DNA of 5,815 nucleotides, taken from IMG/VR virus record IMGVR_UViG_2740892211_000008, one strand, 5' to 3'. Of the stretch, positions 1 through 5,642 are shown piece after piece. The position numbers and the translations under genes were made by a program. The notes below the pieces were generated by a model. The model had not been told where the DNA came from. It saw nothing but the letters and a program-made list of their open reading frames with translations, and searched no databases. Within the stretch, counting starts at the first letter, position 1, and the number at the start of each line of letters is the position of its first letter. This DNA is from a virus. Taxonomy: Duplodnaviria > Heunggongvirae > Uroviricota > Caudoviricetes.

Positions 1-81
1 CAAAATCGGTGGAGCTGCATGACAAAGTCATCGGGCATTATCTGAACATAAAACACTATCAATAAGTTGGAGTCATTACCG
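1..81. repeat. Left copy of a perfect 81-bp inverted repeat at the window terminus
   Basis: Positions 1-81 are the exact reverse complement of 5735-5815 (81/81). Identity breaks at position 82 versus 5734. The repeat may continue beyond the window edge, which cannot be seen. Confidence 0.95.
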
Positions 82-191
82 CATCTGTTATGGATAAAAA
101 TGAAGTCGTACGACAGAGTCTTGTTGATTATATCGACTCGCTTCAACCTGGCACTTTCAATCATGAGAGCTTCAATCATGAGAAAGAGCAT
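1..191 (-). CDS. Partial outward-reading ORF of unknown function; 37 unique codons then 26 codons encoded by the repeat; continues past the left edge
   Basis: The minus-strand frame is open from the stop at 270-272 through position 1. From ATG at 191 it reads MLFLMIEALMIESARLKRVDIINKTLSYDFIFIHNRC, then the repeat-encoded GNDSNLLIVFYVQIMPDDFVMQLHRF. No convincing Shine-Dalgarno before any of the candidate ATGs (191, 179, 164), so start and reality are uncertain. Confidence 0.25.
   Translation of the reverse strand, partial: MLFLMIEALMIESARLKRVDIINKTLSYDFIFIHNRCGNDSNLLIVFYVQIMPDDFVMQLHRF
156..183. repeat. Tandem direct repeat, two copies of TTCAATCATGAGA (156-168 and 171-183)
   Basis: Exact 13-bp unit repeated with a 15-bp period; each copy contains the palindromic hexamer TCATGA. 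Lies between the 106-aa gene and the left inverted repeat. Confidence 0.8.
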
Positions 192-213
192 GTTAAGTCT
201 GTAATTAATTCTC

Positions 214-534
214 TTATTTTGAATCAAAAGAATTAATGCTTTTTGTTGAAAAGTAATTTTCAAGGGGTTCTATTCGAATTCCTTTCTTTTTCATTAACAA
301 GCCAAGCCCCTTATCAATGATGTCCATTAGATCCAGGAAGTATTTTTCATGTAAATCCTGGTTATCAGAGAGCTGCTTCTCTTCGTACAGACCGATAAAG
401 GCACGACGCACGTTACCGGATATAGTATCGATGGTTTCTTTTTCTACGGTACTCAGGTCAAGAGTCGCCAGTTGGGAACGAACTATATTCGCTGCCATTT
501 CCTGGAATTGCATTGGTAAATCTTTAAATTCCAT
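214..534 (-). CDS. Hypothetical 106-aa protein, AT-rich cargo gene at the distal end of the leftward operon
   Basis: ORF of 106 codons with GAGG about 8 nt upstream of the ATG at 534. Visibly lower GC than the neighbouring immunity genes. No signal peptide or transmembrane segment apparent and no family recognised. Confidence 0.6.
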   Translation of the reverse strand: MEFKDLPMQFQEMAANIVRSQLATLDLSTVEKETIDTISGNVRRAFIGLYEEKQLSDNQDLHEKYFLDLMDIIDKGLGLLMKKKGIRIEPLENYFSTKSINSFDSK

Positions 535-556
535 TATTAGCCTCGTTGGTTAGCTA

Positions 557-775
557 TTAACGTGGGTATGTAATCATTCTGGCAATGCTTAATGCCGCTG
601 CTTTTTCCAGATTGGCGATACCCTGCTCCAGAGCGGACAGATTTTCAGCCTGCTTAGCCCTGGCTTCATTGGCCCATTTCAGATCCTGCGCTGCATTAAT
701 TTTCTGGCGCATCCACTCATAAAGTTCATCATCGGTATAGTCTGGCGCGATGATGACGGGTTCTCGTTTCTGCAT
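557..775 (-). CDS. ydfC: YdfC-like small prophage protein (72 aa)
   Basis: 72-codon ORF with GAGGA 7-8 nt upstream of the ATG. It is the third small gene downstream of the DicA-like repressor, matching the remembered Qin order dicA-ydfA-ydfB-ydfC and the remembered YdfC length (72 aa). The symbol rests on synteny and length, not on a sequence alignment. Confidence 0.6.
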   Translation of the reverse strand: MQKREPVIIAPDYTDDELYEWMRQKINAAQDLKWANEARAKQAENLSALEQGIANLEKAAALSIARMITYPR

Positions 776-804
776 ACTGATTCCTCGCGGTGCTGCTTCG
801 CTTA

Positions 805-933
805 TCAGCCGTTAGATTTTGCCGAGCTGGAAAGCGCCTGTTTAAACTCACTGAAGCTGAGAGCTTCTTCGCCTTCGGCAAGGCCTTCGAAGTATTCTTC
901 GTAAGCCTTTTCCATGATTGTGTCGAAATCCAT
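805..933 (-). CDS. ydfB: YdfB-like small acidic protein (42 aa); absent from the ORF track because it is short
   Basis: Minus-strand translation gives MDFDTIMEKAYEEYFEGLAEGEEALSFSEFKQALSSSAKSNG then stop. AGGTGA sits 5-6 nt upstream, and the ATG is 1 nt after the upstream gene's TGA (tight coupling). Length and position match remembered Qin YdfB (42 aa). Confidence 0.55.
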   Translation of the reverse strand: MDFDTIMEKAYEEYFEGLAEGEEALSFSEFKQALSSSAKSNG

Positions 934-934
934 A

Positions 935-1090
935 TCACTCACCTGAGTTTCTTTCCAGCCAGCGACGGGCACCATTTTCGGTTTTAAACGTTTTGCTTTT
1001 GGTATACGTCATCGCGGTGAATGTGCCGTCCTGGTTGGGAAACACGCCGTACACCAGAGATTCGTTGTTGCCAAGACCGATAGTATCCAT
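935..1090 (-). CDS. ydfA: YdfA-like small prophage protein (51 aa)
   Basis: Start chosen at the internal ATG at 1090 (MDTIGLGNNESLVYGVFPNQDGTFTAMTYTKSKTFKTENGARRWLERNSGE), which has GAGGT 5 nt upstream. The 69-aa version in the ORF track has no RBS. Length and position match remembered Qin YdfA (51 aa). Confidence 0.6.
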   Translation of the reverse strand: MDTIGLGNNESLVYGVFPNQDGTFTAMTYTKSKTFKTENGARRWLERNSGE

Positions 1091-1159
1091 GTTGACCTCA
1101 TTTCCCCTTAACGCCGGAGTAGCGGAACTGTTTGCTGAGAACACCGTGCGGTGTCTTGA

Positions 1160-1225
1160 TGAGTGAAATTTAGAATAACCTAAGTCATATGGTCAAGATT
1201 TTTATGTAGAAAAACCTAAGTTTTT
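1160..1225 (-). promoter_or_regulatory. Candidate leftward promoter and operator region upstream of the ydfA-like operon
   Basis: Minus strand has TTGACC (complement of 1191-1196) and a weak -10-like hexamer around 1168-1174. The 10-mer GACTTAGGTT (complement of 1177-1186) lies in the spacer, and a second AACCTAAG copy is at 1213-1220. The same 10-mer recurs in the repressor/cro intergenic region. Confidence 0.4.
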
Positions 1226-1291
1226 TGGTGTAAAAAACACAAGTGTTTGAAAGTTTGTGCTTTTTATTACAGGGTGTGGAGAAAAAAGGGG

Positions 1292-1699
1292 TTATTTGTT
1301 TGCGCTTCTTTTGCGAGCTTTAAGTAGTTCTTCAAAAAGTTTGTTGAAATTTTCAACTCGAGCACGCATCTCTGACAACAGGGCCTTTTGCTCTGAGTCA
1401 GGCAGTGCGTCGAACAGTTGAAGTAACTCTTTTTGATCTTCTGTCAGAATGGCTGGCTGATTATTCGGGATCGGTTCGCCTGGTTGTTTATCTTCATCCC
1501 CAAAAAGAAGCCAAGTCGGTGAGCACTGAAGCGCTTGGCTCAGTGCGAATAATCTTTTCCCCGCCGGCTGTGTTTCATCTCTTTCCCATTGAGAAATTGT
1601 TACGTGAGCCACTTTGACCAGCTTACCTAATGCGGCCTGAGACAGTTTTAATTTTTTACGCCTATGTAAGAGGCGAGCACCGAAGGTTTCGTTTTTCAT
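1292..1699 (-). CDS. dicA: DicA-like XRE-family HTH prophage repressor (135 aa, cI functional analogue)
   Basis: N-terminal HTH (KLSQAALGKLVKVAHVTISQWE) and a C-terminal segment (LFALSQALQCSPTWLLFGDEDKQPG ... MRARVENFNKLFEELLKARKR) that closely matches my memory of E. coli Qin DicA. Same 135-aa length. Divergent from a Cro-like gene. No Shine-Dalgarno upstream of the ATG. Confidence 0.8.
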   Translation of the reverse strand: MKNETFGARLLHRRKKLKLSQAALGKLVKVAHVTISQWERDETQPAGKRLFALSQALQCSPTWLLFGDEDKQPGEPIPNNQPAILTEDQKELLQLFDALPDSEQKALLSEMRARVENFNKLFEELLKARKRSANK

Positions 1700-1775
1700 A
1701 TTAGGGAATTCTAATTTTTCTTGACTTAGGTTTCTCTACGATCTGGTTTCCTTAGGAAAATCTAAGGAGCTCGAT
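1700..1775. promoter_or_regulatory. Divergent promoter/operator region between the repressor and the Cro-like gene
   Basis: 76-bp intergenic region. Contains TTGACT (1721-1726) overlapping GACTTAGGTT (1723-1732), plus CTTAGG at 1751-1756 and CTAAGG at 1762-1767. AAGGAG RBS sits before the cro-like ATG. A TAGAAT-like -10 on the minus strand (complement of 1708-1713) sits about 7 nt from the repressor ATG. Confidence 0.5.
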
Positions 1776-2003
1776 ATGTTGAAAATTGATGCTATAGCGT
1801 TTTTTGGCAGCAAAACAAAGCTTGCCAATGCCGCAGGAGTTAGGTTGGCAAGCATTGCTGCATGGGGGGAACTGGTTCCTGAAGGTCGCGCGATGCGCCT
1901 GCAAGAGGCATCCGGCGGGGAACTTCAGTACGACCCCAAAGTTTATGACGAATATCGTAAGGCAAAGCGGGCGGGGCGGTTGAACAATGAAAATCACCCC
2001 TGA
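1776..2003 (+). CDS. dicC: Cro/DicC-like small DNA-binding regulator (75 aa; YdaS-like)
   Basis: 75-aa ORF divergent from the repressor with AAGGAG 6-7 nt upstream. Size and position match the cro/dicC slot of lambdoid immunity regions. The dicC assignment is by position and size only. Confidence 0.65.
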   Translation: MLKIDAIAFFGSKTKLANAAGVRLASIAAWGELVPEGRAMRLQEASGGELQYDPKVYDEYRKAKRAGRLNNENHP

Positions 2004-2538
2004 ACAGGTTTGTGAGGCTCTGGATGCCTGGGTATGCCGACCAGGAATGACACAGGAGCAGGCGACGATATTAATCACGGAAGCATTCTGGGCTCTGAAA
2101 GAACGCCCGAACATCGATGTTCAACGCGTCACGTTTGATGATGGCGCGGTTGATCAACGGGCGCTGGGCGTTAACCGGGTGAAGATATTCGAACGCTGGA
2201 AATCTATCGACACCAGGGATAAGCGGGAAAAATTCACGGCGCTGATTCCGGCAATTATGGCGGCTATCCGGATCAGTGATTTCAGGTTGTATCGTGAAAT
2301 TACTGACGGAAAAAGCATTACGTACATGATCGCCGGGTTAAACAAAGAATATGGCGATGTGGTGGAGTCAGGGCTACTTTTTGCGGATCCAGCTGTTGTG
2401 GAACGTGAGACTGACGAACTTATAGAAAAAGCTATTGCTTTCAAGCGTGCGTATCGTCAGCAATACCAACATTACTTTGCAGATAAACAAATATCTGTCT
2501 GGGGTTCGTATGAGTATCGATGCGCTACGATGGGCTAA
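1987..2538 (+). CDS. YdaT-like protein (183 aa), the proposed CII functional equivalent
   Basis: Immediately downstream of and overlapping the Cro-like gene by 17 bp, which is the slot occupied by YdaT in Rac/CP-933P-type prophages. Family assignment is by position and general resemblance, not an alignment. Confidence 0.5.
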   Translation: MKITPEQVCEALDAWVCRPGMTQEQATILITEAFWALKERPNIDVQRVTFDDGAVDQRALGVNRVKIFERWKSIDTRDKREKFTALIPAIMAAIRISDFRLYREITDGKSITYMIAGLNKEYGDVVESGLLFADPAVVERETDELIEKAIAFKRAYRQQYQHYFADKQISVWGSYEYRCATMG

Positions 2539-3550
2539 AAAGGTGAAAACCGGCAGTTCATCCAGTAAGTCAGTATTGACCTGGCTTGCTGATATGTGCG
2601 GTGCCGATTTGTGTGCATACCCGTCTGTATCTGCACTGGCAGAAGTAACGGAACTGAACAAAAAGACTGTGCAGGACAGCTTACGACACCTGATGGAGAT
2701 TGGGTTAATTGTTGATACCGGTGAGAGAAAAGGCCGGACAAAACAAATTGTGGTGTACCGACTTATCGGTGTTGAAGAAAGTGTTACCGAGGATGAATAC
2801 ACCCAAAAACGGGAGTCTTTAAAGGTAGGTAAAATTGGTACTGTTAATAAAAACAGAACCGAAAACGGTTATGTTTCAGCACAAAACAGCCCCAAAAACG
2901 GAACTCTTTGCTGCATGGAAAATAACCAAAGACACCCAAATTTTCCATCAAAGACACCCAAAAACGGATCACGGAACCCAAAGGAACCCAAAGATTTAAA
3001 CCCCACACATAACGCACGCGAGAGTGCTCCGACCAGTGAGCAGGAAGTTTTGTCGTTACAGGCAGTCCCCCCTGTATTCCTGGATGGCCTGAGCGAACCC
3101 ATCGGAAAATTTCCGATGACCGATAACTGGTATCCGTCACGGGATTTTCGACGACGGGCTGCGTTGTGGGGGATGGCTTTGCCGGAGACAGAATTCACAC
3201 CTGCTGAACTTGCCGCATTCCGGGACTACTGGGCAGCGGAGGGGAAAGTGTTTACGCAGGTTCAGTGGGAGCAGAAATTCGCCCGTCACGTAAATCACGT
3301 CAGGGCGCAGGTTAAACCAGTCAGCAAGGGGGTAAACCATGCAGCAGCACCAGGTGGAACCGCATCACGGGCAGTTCAGGAAATTCGGGCAGCACGTGAG
3401 CAGTGGGAACGTGAAAACGGATTTATCAGCGACGGAAACGGCCTGGAAGCTGTGGGAGCTCATGGGGGAGGTTTATTCGAACCGCTGGACCCAGAAGAAC
3501 GGGGCCGCACCTTCGAAGCTCTGGATTGCACAGATTGGCGCGATGACTGA
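2510..3550 (+). CDS. Replication initiator, lambda O functional analogue, with N-terminal HTH/winged-helix and C-terminal DnaT-like region (346 aa from ATG 2510)
   Basis: Start placed at the internal ATG at 2510 (MSIDALRWAKKVKTGSSSSKSVLTWLADMCGADLCAYPSVSALAEVTELNKKTVQDSLRHLMEIGLIVDTG), a typical phage initiator HTH N-terminus. The C-terminal segment (TPAELAAFRDYWAAEGKVFTQVQWEQKFARHVNHVRAQ) resembles DnaT-like domains of prophage replication proteins. A low-complexity linker holds iteron-like DNA repeats. The last 212 bp overlap the P-like gene out of frame. Confidence 0.7.
   Translation: MSIDALRWAKKVKTGSSSSKSVLTWLADMCGADLCAYPSVSALAEVTELNKKTVQDSLRHLMEIGLIVDTGERKGRTKQIVVYRLIGVEESVTEDEYTQKRESLKVGKIGTVNKNRTENGYVSAQNSPKNGTLCCMENNQRHPNFPSKTPKNGSRNPKEPKDLNPTHNARESAPTSEQEVLSLQAVPPVFLDGLSEPIGKFPMTDNWYPSRDFRRRAALWGMALPETEFTPAELAAFRDYWAAEGKVFTQVQWEQKFARHVNHVRAQVKPVSKGVNHAAAPGGTASRAVQEIRAAREQWERENGFISDGNGLEAVGAHGGGLFEPLDPEERGRTFEALDCTDWRDD
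2856..2994. repeat. Iteron-like repeat cluster inside the O-like gene (putative replication origin)
   Basis: Repeated CCCAAAAACGG-type units at about 2858, 2891, 2932, 2955, 2975 and 2986 (for example GAACCGAAAACGG, CCCCAAAAACGG, ACACCCAAAAACGG, GAACCCAAAGG twice). An AT-rich stretch lies just upstream at 2821-2855. Lambda's origin is likewise iterons embedded in the O gene. Confidence 0.45.
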
Positions 3551-4004
3551 GCAGCAAATCCGGCAGGTCTGCCGCCAGTGCATGGACTGCTGCCGGGCGG
3601 GTGAAACATGGCCTCCGGACCTGGCTGAGTTTGTGGCGCTGATTTCGGAAAGCGGGGCCAATCCATTTGGTCTGACGGTGGATGCTGTGATGGAGGAGTA
3701 CCGCCGCTGGCGCAATGAGTCCTGGCGATACGACGGAAGTGATAAGTACCCGTGGTCTCAGCCTGTGCTGTATCACATTTGCCTCGAGATGCGTTCAAAG
3801 GGGATTGAACGCCAGATGACCGAAGGGGAGTTAAAACGGCTTGCAGAACGGCAGCTGACGAAATGGGCAAAGCATGTTAGCAACGGCCTGAGTGTTCCGC
3901 CTGTCCGGCGACAACTGGCAGCACCCAAACGTCCTGCGGGACCAACGCCAATTGAGTTGCTGAAACAGGAATATGAACGCCGGAAAGCGGCTGGGTTTGT
4001 CTGA
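3339..4004 (+). CDS. Lambda P-like replication protein (221 aa; helicase-loader family)
   Basis: Strong RBS AAGGGGG 9 nt upstream of ATG 3339. Segments (AMTEQQIRQVCRQ..., PDLAEFVAL, YPWSQPVLYHICLEMR, TEGELKRLAERQL) resemble the lambda P layout as I remember it (TTMEQVNAGMRVARRQ, PGQFVAWC, YPWKSNAHYWLVTNLYQNMR, TDAELRRKAADEL). Sits directly after the O-like gene as in lambda. Confidence 0.65.
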   Translation: MQQHQVEPHHGQFRKFGQHVSSGNVKTDLSATETAWKLWELMGEVYSNRWTQKNGAAPSKLWIAQIGAMTEQQIRQVCRQCMDCCRAGETWPPDLAEFVALISESGANPFGLTVDAVMEEYRRWRNESWRYDGSDKYPWSQPVLYHICLEMRSKGIERQMTEGELKRLAERQLTKWAKHVSNGLSVPPVRRQLAAPKRPAGPTPIELLKQEYERRKAAGFV

Positions 4005-4036
4005 TTTGAGAAGTAATTTTTACCGGGAGGAAATTT

Positions 4037-4783
4037 ATGGAGACTGTTTTTGACGCACTGAAAGCGATGGGAAAAGCCACGTCGGTAGAGCTGGCTGCGC
4101 GACTTGATATCAGTCGTGAAGAAGTGCTGAACGAGCTGTGGGAACTGAGAAAGGCTGGCTTCGTTGATAAAAGCGTATACACCTGGCGTGTGGCTTATAA
4201 CAACGTTCAGCAGGAACAGCCAGCGCCGGCAGAACTGTCGGAAGAAACCACCACGGCAACAGTCGCTAAAATTTCGGAGTGCGATTTAACTGCGACGGTT
4301 GAACAACGCGGACCACAAACGGCTGATGAGCTGGCTACGTTGTTCGGTACAACATCACGCAAAGTGGCTTCAACGCTGGCAATGGCAATCAGCAAAGGTC
4401 GTCTGATTCGTGTAAACCAGAACGGTAAATTTCGTTACTGCATGCCGGGCGATAAGTTACCAGCAGAGCCGAAATCCGTGCCGGTAACGGAAAATGATGG
4501 TAAAGCCTTTCCTCAGCCAGCAGGTGTTGCGTTACCAGTACAGGAAGCTGCAACACAGGAAGATATTAAAACAGAAACTGTGGCTGATATTGTGCAATCG
4601 TTGCCATCGTTTACTGAAACGCGAGCGGATGACCTGGTTTTACCATCGCTGCATATGGCAAACCGCGAATTGCGTCGGGCGAAAAGTCATGTCCAGAAGT
4701 GGGAGCGAGTCTGCGCCGCGCTGCGGGAGCTGAACAAGCACCGAGATATGGTTGCCGGGATTTGTCGGAAGTCCGGGCAATGA
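4037..4783 (+). CDS. Prophage protein with two winged-helix-like modules (248 aa), function unknown
   Basis: GGGAGG RBS 7 nt upstream of the ATG. N-terminal segment [33 protein letters not shown] and a second segment [33 protein letters not shown] both look like winged-helix recognition modules. Possibly a DUF1627-type prophage protein, but that is a recollection only. Confidence 0.6.
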
Positions 4784-4944
4784 GCGGATGGTGCAGGCCT
4801 GAAATTATGATACTAACAATGAAGGTAAAATGCATCGGCAGTCTGATTGGTCGTAGTGAGGCGGCGGTCAGGATGAAAGCCCGAGTTAAGGGAATAAGCC
4901 TGATTCTGCGGGGTAATTTTCACCAGTCAACAAAATATCCGTAG
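4780..4944 (+). CDS. Small hypothetical ORF (54 aa), possibly coupled to the upstream gene
   Basis: ATG at 4780 overlaps the upstream TGA (ATGA arrangement). Translation [54 protein letters not shown]. Weak RBS and no recognisable family. Confidence 0.3.
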
Positions 4945-4981
4945 CGCGATAACGGTCAAAAATCATGGCGCTGACACTTTT

Positions 4982-5224
4982 GTGCCACTGGAGATGACTG
5001 TACCTAAGTTCAGGGGAGAAGAACACGTCCGGTGGGATGGTCGGGCCAGATTTAAAGGGCAGGTCATGGCTCCAGCCAGTACGCTGGCAATGGAGGCTGC
5101 CTGGCTGGAAATTGATATGGGAACCACGCCACTCAGGGATTTACTGCCGGTCCAGAGAATAAATTCCTGTTACGGTTACACCACTGTGATCTTGCAAGTG
5201 CAGGAAAGTAGGTCTACACGGTAA
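4982..5224 (+). CDS. Hypothetical ORF (80 aa from GTG 4982, or shorter from ATG 4994), possibly a gene remnant
   Basis: Open frame only. No good RBS for either start and no recognisable domain. Sits where the phage module gives way to the AT-rich right arm. Confidence 0.25.
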   Translation: MPLEMTVPKFRGEEHVRWDGRARFKGQVMAPASTLAMEAAWLEIDMGTTPLRDLLPVQRINSCYGYTTVILQVQESRSTR

Positions 5225-5450
5225 CGCGAGTGCGTGTAACTTTTGATGTTATTTCCGTAGAAACACCGGACAAATTTTCGCTGGCAGGTCATGCTGAAGG
5301 TATAAATCTGCAGATTATGGACAATTACGGATATCCGGCAAGAGCCGGAAAAAGCATGCCGCCTCTAATTCTCAGTGGAAGATGGACTTGATTATACTCA
5401 TTGCATTGTCAGAAATAGTTATCCATTAAAGGCTGGCTATTCCAAACAGG

Positions 5451-5478
5451 ATGTTGATTACAAAAATGTAATCAACAT
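5451..5478. promoter_or_regulatory. Perfect 28-bp palindrome (12-bp arms, 4-bp spacer), candidate operator upstream of the secreted-protein gene
   Basis: ATGTTGATTACA-AAAA-TGTAATCAACAT; the two arms are exact reverse complements. About 165 bp upstream of ATG 5643 and just upstream of a consensus -10. Confidence 0.6.
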
Positions 5479-5504
5479 GTAAGGTTTATACTCTTCAATA
5501 TGCG

Positions 5505-5510
5505 TATAAT
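5505..5510 (+). promoter_or_regulatory. Consensus -10 hexamer TATAAT, candidate promoter for the right-end gene
   Basis: Exact TATAAT at 5505-5510 in an AT-rich leader. No good -35 at 17 bp (AGGTTT), which suggests activator dependence or an extended -10 type promoter. Predicted start about 5517. Confidence 0.3.
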
Positions 5511-5642
5511 TTTCCTTATTTTGTTAACTTTAAATAACAAGCTATGCACGAGGTAAAGTCGGATAAGTTTATCTGGATGTAATATATATTATTTGTAGTG
5601 TTTATAACTTTATTTCATGATAACCAATAAAAGGAGTTTTTT

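Follow-up and report, generated by a model that had tools for sequence, protein, structure and literature searches.

Does the overlapping gene pair that directly follows the immunity switch of a tailed-phage genome fragment encode a toxin-antitoxin (TA) module or a pair of lysogeny regulators? We addressed this question for IMG/VR record IMGVR_UViG_2740892211_000008 (Caudoviricetes), the whole of whose 5,815 nucleotides (nt) is referred to here as the window. An original prediction had described the pair, a gene for 75 amino acids (aa) and an overlapping gene for 183 aa, as a YdaS/YdaT-type pair of the Rac/CP-933P kind, and had left it undecided which role applies. It had also noted that such pairs were first annotated as TA modules and later reinterpreted as Cro and CII equivalents, which is an accurate account of the literature (PMC5917428, PMC8630535, PMC9986795, PMC11879457). 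By the analysis reported here the pair is likely to form the regulatory operon on the lytic side of a Qin-like lambdoid prophage with DicA/DicC immunity, encoding DicC and a CII-like factor of the YdaT family that raises the expression of dicA. A CII-like mechanism, as predicted from sequence comparison, is well supported, and the choice of role is not fully open: a candidate binding site over the start codon of the second gene, a -10-like element at a fixed distance from it and a similar unit upstream of xis-int favour a CII-like role.

Gene order and distribution of the pair

Both open reading frames (ORFs) start with ATG, the first at 1776-2003 (+) and the second at 1987-2538 (+), and they share 17 nt (1987-2003), which confirms the two genes and the overlap that had been predicted. 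To the left lies a divergent gene for a 135-aa helix-turn-helix (HTH) repressor (1292-1699, -) and to the right the replication genes begin: an initiator with a DnaT domain has its ATG at 2510 and is followed by a loader resembling lambda P and by a DUF1627 protein. Because a divergent repressor stands directly upstream and a replication initiator and loader directly downstream, the pair occupies the cro-cII slot, where the original prediction had put it.

The window represents a widespread E. coli lambdoid prophage region. By megablast, 554 complete E. coli genomes contain 80% of it or more, the best matches having 99.6-99.7% identity. The prophage of E. coli O103:H2 12009 has the order int-xis-exo-dicB...ydfC-ydfA-repressor / cro-ydaT-O-P...Q, and there the counterpart of the 75-aa protein is annotated as "Cro/CI family transcriptional regulator" and that of the 183-aa protein as "toxin YdaT family protein" (WP_000705373.1, 183 aa). 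The nearest cluster of the 183-aa protein at the 90% identity level holds 1504 member sequences, its representative being 93% identical to the window protein. The pair is also found in phages mEp460 and PhiR42_1, with a 173-aa form of the second protein; the PhiR42_1 record labels it Cro and cII. The order of repressor, Cro/YdaS-type gene, YdaT-type gene and replication genes is kept in all related loci examined except one (L108). Given the annotation in O103:H2 12009, the 554 genomes, the 1504-member cluster and an excess of synonymous changes in the core of the second gene (see below), both ORFs are real genes rather than chance ORFs.

The first gene encodes DicC under a Qin-type switch

The 75-aa protein passes the NCBIfam test for DicC (NF007282; 167.9 bits, cut-off 130) and the Pfam test for P22_Cro (PF14549; 49.7 bits, cut-off 30.2), while its score against Pfam YdaS_toxin (PF15943) is 20.4 bits, under the cut-off of 30. 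Residues 1-58 align with the sequence of the P22 Cro structure 1RZS (E 2.5e-7). Identity with K-12 DicC reaches 84%, as against 28% with Rac YdaS. The protein is DicC, of the P22-Cro type; its HTH family is related to that of YdaS, but it should be filed as DicC/P22_Cro. Since the DicC and P22_Cro tests were passed, that for YdaS failed and the repressor is DicA (Table 1), the immunity switch is of the Qin DicA/DicC type and not of the Rac or CP-933P type that had been proposed. The YdaT half of the predicted YdaS/YdaT pair stands, as set out in the next section, and the YdaS half does not.

The window was scanned for TTAGN6CTAA with at most one mismatch. Five matches were found, every one of them in the two regulatory regions that flank dicA: three to the right (1701-1714, 1726-1739 and 1752-1765) and two to the left, TTAGAATAACCTAA and GTAGAAAAACCTAA (1170-1183 and 1206-1219), which lie 36 nt apart (window 1166-1230). 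Chromatin immunoprecipitation sequencing (ChIP-seq) of DicC gave the palindrome TT(A/C/T)G...C(G/A/T)AA and showed DicC bound in two regions, either side of dicA; the half-sites and placement of the window operators agree with this motif and with these regions (PMC11430063). DicC, as a repressor of the P22-Cro type, would compete with DicA at the operators on both sides of dicA. The left operators overlap a promoter-like site, TTGACC-18-TAAATT (1196..1167, -), upstream of a ydfA-like DUF1391 gene; reading leftwards into the ydfA/ydfC-like genes, this predicted promoter is the equivalent of PL, the promoter of the dicB operon. At the dicC promoter itself a -35-like TTGACT is conserved (1721-1726), and no convincing -10 hexamer was seen 16-18 nt from it in the window, the best candidate being TGGTTT. 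K-12 Qin has TATCTT at the dicC -10 position, where the window has a 4-nt gap relative to K-12.

The second gene encodes a YdaT-family protein

The profile search against YdaT and CII families that had been suggested for the 183-aa protein gave a match to Pfam YdaT_toxin (PF06254) at 28.6 bits, above the cut-off of 21, and to phrog_163, "CII-like transcriptional activator", at 5.9e-42. A phmmer search against sequences in the Protein Data Bank (PDB) returned only marginal matches (8bt1 and 3c4r, E 0.02), so that family membership was decided by profile-profile and fold comparison. When a profile of 32 members of the subfamily was aligned by hhalign with one of 12 classical YdaT proteins, Rac YdaT included, residues 1-159 matched with a probability of 99.8% (E 3e-29). 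The AlphaFold2 model has a mean predicted local distance difference test (pLDDT) score of 77, with 80-95 over residues 1-100, where helices span residues 5-16, 23-36 and 57-70 and a 20-residue loop residues 37-56; two further helices, at 111-132 and 135-159, are modelled at a pLDDT of 52-72. Foldseek placed the CP-933P YdaT structure 8bt1 and 3c4r first in the PDB (probability 1.0, target-normalised template modelling (TM) score 0.59-0.66), and beyond YdaT structures the next PDB match was at E 0.46 only.

Within the predicted recognition helix N63, R70 and W71 are invariant in the 32-sequence alignment, and R70-W71 align with R57-W58 of Rac YdaT. The recognition-helix arginine is conserved as Arg60 in CP-933P and R57 in Rac, and the R57A substitution abolishes binding by Rac YdaT (PMC11879457). 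The 183-aa protein is a full-length member of the YdaT family (PF06254). Its likeness to lambda CII is one of function only, as an analogue and not a homologue: a Pfam search gave no CII-family match at E up to 0.1, and no CII structure was among its PDB sequence matches. An exhaustive HMMER search of 1.84 billion representatives returned only 84 relatives; the family is narrow, from enterobacterial prophages wherever the source organism was named.

Read as a type II TA module, the pair would consist of a 183-aa toxin and of the small HTH protein as antitoxin and autoregulator. The Pfam names "YdaS_toxin" and "YdaT_toxin", the "toxin YdaT family protein" label of the Prokaryotic Genome Annotation Pipeline (PGAP) and the layout as a small, overlapping gene pair agree with such a reading, and overexpression of Rac YdaT leads to filamentation and death (PMC5700377, PMC11879457). 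The Rac toxicity, however, has been explained by transcriptional mis-regulation of rcsA (PMC11879457), and published tests found no TA behaviour, CP-933P YdaT not being toxic (PMC8630535, PMC5917428). The fold of the 183-aa protein is that of an HTH DNA-binding protein and includes no toxin-like domain, neither protein matched the PADLOC defence/TA models, and the pair sits in the cro-cII slot with replication genes directly downstream, in phages mEp460 and PhiR42_1 as well. The "toxin" label is a historical annotation, and the TA reading, which draws on names only, is highly improbable.

The same gene is met in a shortened state in E. coli K-12, where dicC of Qin is followed, with an identical 17-nt overlap, by ydfX (L003 2847-3137). 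YdfX (96 aa) follows the 183-aa protein over residues 1-93 (window 1987-2265), with 89% identity, and then breaks off. Because YdfX stops matching after residue 93, the window holds the intact form of the gene that is truncated in K-12. By this comparison ydfX, which is listed as of unknown function, is a YdaT-family gene cut by rearrangement that keeps the DNA-binding domain only. YdfX has already been named the Qin prophage YdaT homolog, co-operonic with DicC (PMC11879457). In abundant variants from Salmonella (P0109, P0110, P0122 and P0130-P0134; 879 members in one cluster) all similarity is lost beyond about residue 120. Their C-terminal half looks as though it came from a different frame, which a fixed frameshift or an alternative C-terminus could explain.

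A candidate YdaT-box over the start codon

At 1980-1997 the window contains TTGAAC-AATGAA-AATCAC, in which the ATG of the 183-aa gene takes up positions 2-4 of the spacer. The published CP-933P YdaT site, TTGATT-N6-AATCAA, lies at the ydaS/ydaT border (PMC9986795), and the footprinted YdaT box of Rac, ATGATT-CATGAA-AATCAA, has the ydaT ATG within its spacer (PMC11879457). The window box resembles the CP-933P site and stands in the same register relative to the start codon as the Rac box.

We surveyed 18 diverse YdaT-family loci, five of which were fetched later as a hold-out set. All 18 have a TGA-N10-TCA core at or just upstream of the start codon. In 14 it lies over the start codon in the register of the window, in three it is found in the upstream intergenic spacer, and in L096 the box is shifted by one codon, still in register with an invariant Ile codon. 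The sequence flanking the box is mostly unconserved across the loci. The box is not a Shine-Dalgarno sequence, nor is its TGA the stop codon of the upstream gene (the frame was checked in the window and in loci with a 4-nt overlap). It became apparent only when the window was set beside the Rac and CP-933P sites in the literature and beside other loci; a generic repeat search of 1850-2150 (seed 6) returned nothing at the cro/ydaT junction.

Throughout the window, 1980-1997 is the only perfect match to the consensus derived from the survey. Other near-matches (1458-1473, 4404-4419 and others) were rejected as targets, because they have no -10 element at an offset of 20-21 in either direction and their number is close to chance.

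A predicted leftward promoter and a second site upstream of xis-int

A TAnnnT hexamer is found 20 or 21 nt beyond the box, on the strand that reads towards the repressor gene, in 17 of the 18 loci. As controls, no other offset from 0 to 69 reached more than 3 loci, and the opposite direction never more than 1. Four of the five hold-out loci have the hexamer at 20 or 21 nt, the exception being L108, whose immunity context is not normal. The hexamer also keeps its distance from the box in L104 and L105, in which about 30 nt separate the box from the start codon. The hexamer of the window is TACGAT (1959-1954, -), 20 nt from the box, which puts the centre of the box near -41.5 and the predicted leftward start near 1947. 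A centre near -41.5 is the classical place for an activator that overlaps the -35 region (class II activation). These features point to a leftward PRE-like promoter starting near 1947, antisense to dicC and directed towards dicA. We considered whether the -10-like element could be an artefact of Shine-Dalgarno or coding constraint in the upstream gene, and rejected this because the element moves with the box in L104 and L105, is present at xis-int, and lies in upstream genes that differ in family and frame.

The 17.2-kb early region of the near-identical O103:H2 prophage (L001) was scanned for the pattern of a box followed at 20 or 21 nt by TAnnnT. Exactly two matches were found, the PRE-like site and one upstream of xis-int; base-composition shuffles lead one to expect 0.36. 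The second box, CTGATTTTTAATGTTCAA (L001 2015-1998, -), is followed 20 nt downstream by TATTCT (unit at L001 1972-2015) and is identical to the first at 15 of 18 positions. Its place is beyond the window, in the stretch from the 3' end of exo to xis-int, with about 32 nt between it and the xis ATG downstream; the leftward start is predicted near L001 1965. Both sites recur in phages mEp460 and PhiR42_1 (L110, about 2714, and L111, about 4459, for the xis-int site). The CTGATTTTTAATGTTCAA unit looks like a PI-like promoter.

To the directly observed features of the locus (gene structure, family, fold, slot, conservation of the box and of the -10 element, mosaic boundaries) we add a model in which the DNA binding, oligomeric state, promoter activity and direction of regulation of the 183-aa protein are inferred. 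As a transcription factor of the YdaT family, the protein would take the part that CII has in lambda, and infection or derepression would lead to its expression from the dicC promoter. It would probably assemble through its C-terminal helices, then bind the 18-bp box over its own start codon and activate the weak leftward promoter with its -10 hexamer TACGAT. The leftward transcript would run antisense through dicC into dicA; if so, repressor synthesis would go up and Cro down, and lysogeny would be favoured. The second unit of box and -10 element that near-identical phages have upstream of xis-int could serve as PI does for lambda CII. In CP-933P and Rac, YdaT has been shown to switch on a reverse promoter that serves the repressor gene (PMC8630535, PMC11879457).

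The position of the box could also suggest that the 183-aa protein is mainly a repressor or roadblock at its own start codon, blocking its own translation or transcription and PR-type read-through to the replication genes, with activation of the repressor gene absent or minor. The box does cover the start codon, in the path of rightward transcription, a structural paper calls YdaT a "repressor" (PMC9986795), and Rac YdaT has further binding sites at the operators between racR and ydaS (PMC11879457). Such a role is hard to square, however, with a -10-like hexamer 20-21 nt from the box on the repressor-facing strand only in 17 of 18 loci, and with the xis-int unit, where no start codon is covered; moreover, the Rac and CP-933P homologues activate the reverse promoter up to 29-fold while the forward one is barely affected (PMC11879457, PMC8630535). 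We therefore regard a mainly repressive protein as unlikely. The two roles are not mutually exclusive, and a roadblock is possible as an additional role of an activator.

Several points weigh against the CII-like model itself. Our literature search found no experiment on the DicC-linked YdaT subfamily. The C-terminal long helix of CP-933P YdaT forms a tetramer and is required for DNA binding, and the homologous region of the 183-aa protein has a 15-residue insertion relative to that helix and is modelled with low confidence. The window box is a poor palindrome, with 9 of 12 positions agreeing with the TTGATT/AATCAA half-sites and halves that are complementary at 3 of 6, so that affinity or binding mode may differ, and its right half-site is partly constrained by Met-Lys-Ile codons. 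Kinship among the 18 loci inflates their independence, and the nominal binomial probabilities of the -10 element (4e-25 overall, 4.5e-6 for the hold-out set) are overstated because of it. Scanning 1776-2000 for a simple sigma-70 consensus revealed no reverse promoter; this is expected of an activator-dependent promoter, yet it is no positive evidence, and with the scan empty the promoter reading rested on cross-locus conservation. Finally, the Rac study puts the YdaT-dependent reverse promoter about 190 bp from the box (PMC11879457). The construct used in that study also contains the proposed adjacent -10 element, and both placements fit its data.

We tentatively propose, as a plausible generalisation to be held with some reserve, that the whole YdaT family shares a fixed cassette in which an 18-bp box is centred about 41.5 bp upstream of a leftward start, with the -10 element exactly 20-21 bp from the box. 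This cassette would recur upstream of xis-int in the DicC-linked phages, YdaT, though unrelated to lambda CII in fold and recognising an inverted repeat, would resemble it in controlling both the PRE-like and the PI-like establishment promoters, and the swapped tail of the protein might tune its stability. Such an adjacent cassette differs from the "action at a distance" over about 190 bp proposed for Rac.

Origin of the extra length

Rac YdaT has 140 aa, so that the 183-aa protein is indeed the longer of the two, as had been pointed out. Alignments trace the difference to three sources. Between HTH helices 2 and 3 the loop has about 16 residues more, which keeps it within the 9-23 residues reported for the family (PMC9986795); an insertion of 15 residues, at about residues 123-137, divides the long C-terminal helix, so that two helices are predicted there; and a tail of 22 residues (162-183) follows the family core, which ends YRQQYQ(RHDQ).

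The tail is contributed by the adjoining replication module and varies with it. The tail of the 183-aa form, HYFADKQISVWGSYEYRCATMG, accompanies a DnaT-type initiator starting MSIDALRW, and that of the 173-aa form, QKAGWNYEPSFC, accompanies a different initiator; 165-aa forms have a clean end, followed by a short gap. In the window the final 29 nt of the gene overlap the start of the replication gene. At about 2471 the resemblance in DNA to mEp460, E. ruysiae and other loci breaks off abruptly, and the left junction of the shared mosaic module is at about 1870, inside dicC. The module of about 1870-2471 therefore unites the ydaT core with the box, the -10 element and the 3' end of cro, as would be expected for an activator and its target.

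Variant codons were counted in 33 IMG/VR haplotypes. The core of the gene has 56 synonymous and 26 nonsynonymous changes, and codons 162-174 of the tail have 1 and 5, which differs from the core (Fisher p=0.019). The AlphaFold pLDDT over the tail is about 51. All of the top 80 IMG/VR matches (80/80) span the full 183 residues, and the explanation of the length by a frameshift or fusion was rejected on this ground. The extra length consists of family-typical insertions and a weakly constrained read-through tail from a mosaic junction, with no sign of a new function.

The 183-aa form could nevertheless be imagined as a degenerate or fused gene in a decaying prophage remnant, its long C-terminus marking a loss of function. 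The copy in K-12, ydfX, is truncated, the databases contain many variants with truncations or frameshifts, and constraint is relaxed in the tail. Against this, the core (residues 1-161) is intact, has the full length of the family and is under purifying selection, and the cluster of 183-aa proteins and the full-length IMG/VR matches show how commonly this form is kept. Only the last 22 residues are atypical, and CP-933P YdaT tolerates a disordered C-terminal end (PMC9986795). Decay is a very unlikely explanation, and we continue to read the gene as one for an intact regulator.

Features of the window

The features discussed above are collected in Table 1.

Table 1. Positions of genes, protein regions and regulatory sites in the window, with the evidence for each.
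Feature	Coordinates	Strand	Evidence
DicA-type CI-like repressor, 135 aa	1292..1699	-	NF007257 DicA 236 bits (cut-off 101); Pfam HTH_3 8e-14
DicC, Cro-type regulator, 75 aa	1776..2003	+	NF007282, PF14549, 1RZS, K-12 DicC
Replication initiator, DnaT-domain, O-like	2510..3550	+	PF17948 DnaT 2.5e-17; phrog_1032 4e-92; PGAP-annotated in O103:H2 prophage
Right operator cluster, between dicA and dicC	1701..1765		Three TTAG-N6-CTAA sites
Left operator pair	1170..1219		Overlaps leftward promoter-like site
Candidate YdaT-box TTGAAC-AATGAA-AATCAC	1980..1997		Register of Rac box; cross-locus conservation
Predicted -10 hexamer TACGAT of PRE-like promoter	1954..1959	-	20 nt from box; cross-locus conservation
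183-aa protein residues 1-98, POU-like HTH DNA-binding domain	1987..2280	+	AlphaFold, Foldseek
183-aa protein residues 99-161, C-terminal helices, 15-residue insertion	2281..2469	+	hhalign; AlphaFold
183-aa protein residues 162-183, non-conserved read-through tail	2470..2538	+	Co-variation with replication gene, haplotypes, pLDDT

The best genome matches span only 537-5735, leaving the ends of the window (1-536 and 5736-5815) outside, and further mosaic junctions are thus placed near 537 and near 5735; the first falls between a 106-aa ORF (214-534) and the ydfC-like gene. An Rfam scan of the window found no RNA family, and thus no dicF or OOP-like known RNA. To the right of the pair, a mechanically called 221-aa P-like ORF (3339-4004) shares about 210 nt with the end of the O-like gene, and at this position PGAP has only a 153-aa replication protein P, with a start near window 3543. 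PHROG 15931 matches both the O-like and the P-like ORF, as though they were fused in some phages. After the DUF1627 gene there is a frameshifted fimbrial-protein pseudogene (window about 4950-5480; L001 10414-10947), and in the O103:H2 prophage the paa adhesin gene is next, virulence-associated cargo within the early-right region.

Comparison with known systems

The pair is already known in kind, as the ordinary, catalogued DicC and YdaT-family regulators of a Qin-like E. coli prophage, because PGAP assigns the second protein to the YdaT family, PHROGs call it CII-like, PhiR42_1 has it as cII and the K-12 remnant has been named a YdaT homologue. No new class of biology is opened, and what we add is modest: the explanation of the length, the link to ydfX, the conserved geometry of box and -10 element and the PI-like second site. 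For annotation the result is of some value, as thousands of E. coli genomes say "toxin YdaT family protein" for a product that the evidence points to as a CII-like regulator of lysogeny. A box, a -10 element set at constant spacing from it and a second copy upstream of xis-int amount to a concrete promoter model for a family whose promoter geometry has been inconsistently described in the literature.

CP-933P YdaT (8BT1) and Rac YdaT (K-12 b1358) have in common with the 183-aa protein a POU-like HTH, C-terminal helices and the Arg-Trp of the recognition helix. They occupy the same slot, after a Cro-type gene, before the replication genes and opposite the repressor, with the same kind of 18-bp box (a candidate one in the window), with its TGA-N10-TCA core, over or next to their own start codon. 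Sequence similarity is low, however: BLASTP aligns only 32 residues with Rac YdaT, at 44% identity, and the Foldseek alignments with 8bt1 and 3c4r have 26-29% identity. The 183-aa protein differs by its longer HTH loop, its C-terminal insertion and its module-junction tail, and the left half-site of its box is TGAAC rather than TGATT. Its partner is of the DicC/P22-Cro type and not a Pfam YdaS, and the repressor is DicA, not RacR or PaaR2. Closer kin is found in K-12 Qin, where DicC and YdfX are orthologous to the window proteins and share the overlap; YdfX, unlike the intact window gene, is without the oligomerisation helices that CP-933P YdaT needs for binding.

P22 Cro (1RZS, PF14549) matches the 75-aa protein over residues 1-58 and has the same role opposite a repressor of the CI/C2 type. 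DicC differs in having a basic C-terminal extension of 17 residues, whose coding sequence holds the predicted -10 element and half of the YdaT-box, and the operator specificity of the window DicC is TTAG-N6-CTAA.

Lambda CII occupies the same slot as the 183-aa protein, and in both cases the site, predicted for the window, is at the 5' end of the protein's own gene beside a weak leftward promoter that reads antisense through cro and on to the repressor gene. As CII activates PRE, PI and PaQ, so the related phages hold a second predicted site upstream of the integration genes, though the PI-like unit is upstream of xis, whereas lambda PI is inside xis. The proteins themselves differ, there being no Pfam CII match, and fold class and tetramer geometry are not the same (lambda facts partly from PMC9986795). 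Lambda CII binds the direct repeat TTGC-N6-TTGC, while the window box, the predicted target of the 183-aa protein, is an inverted repeat.

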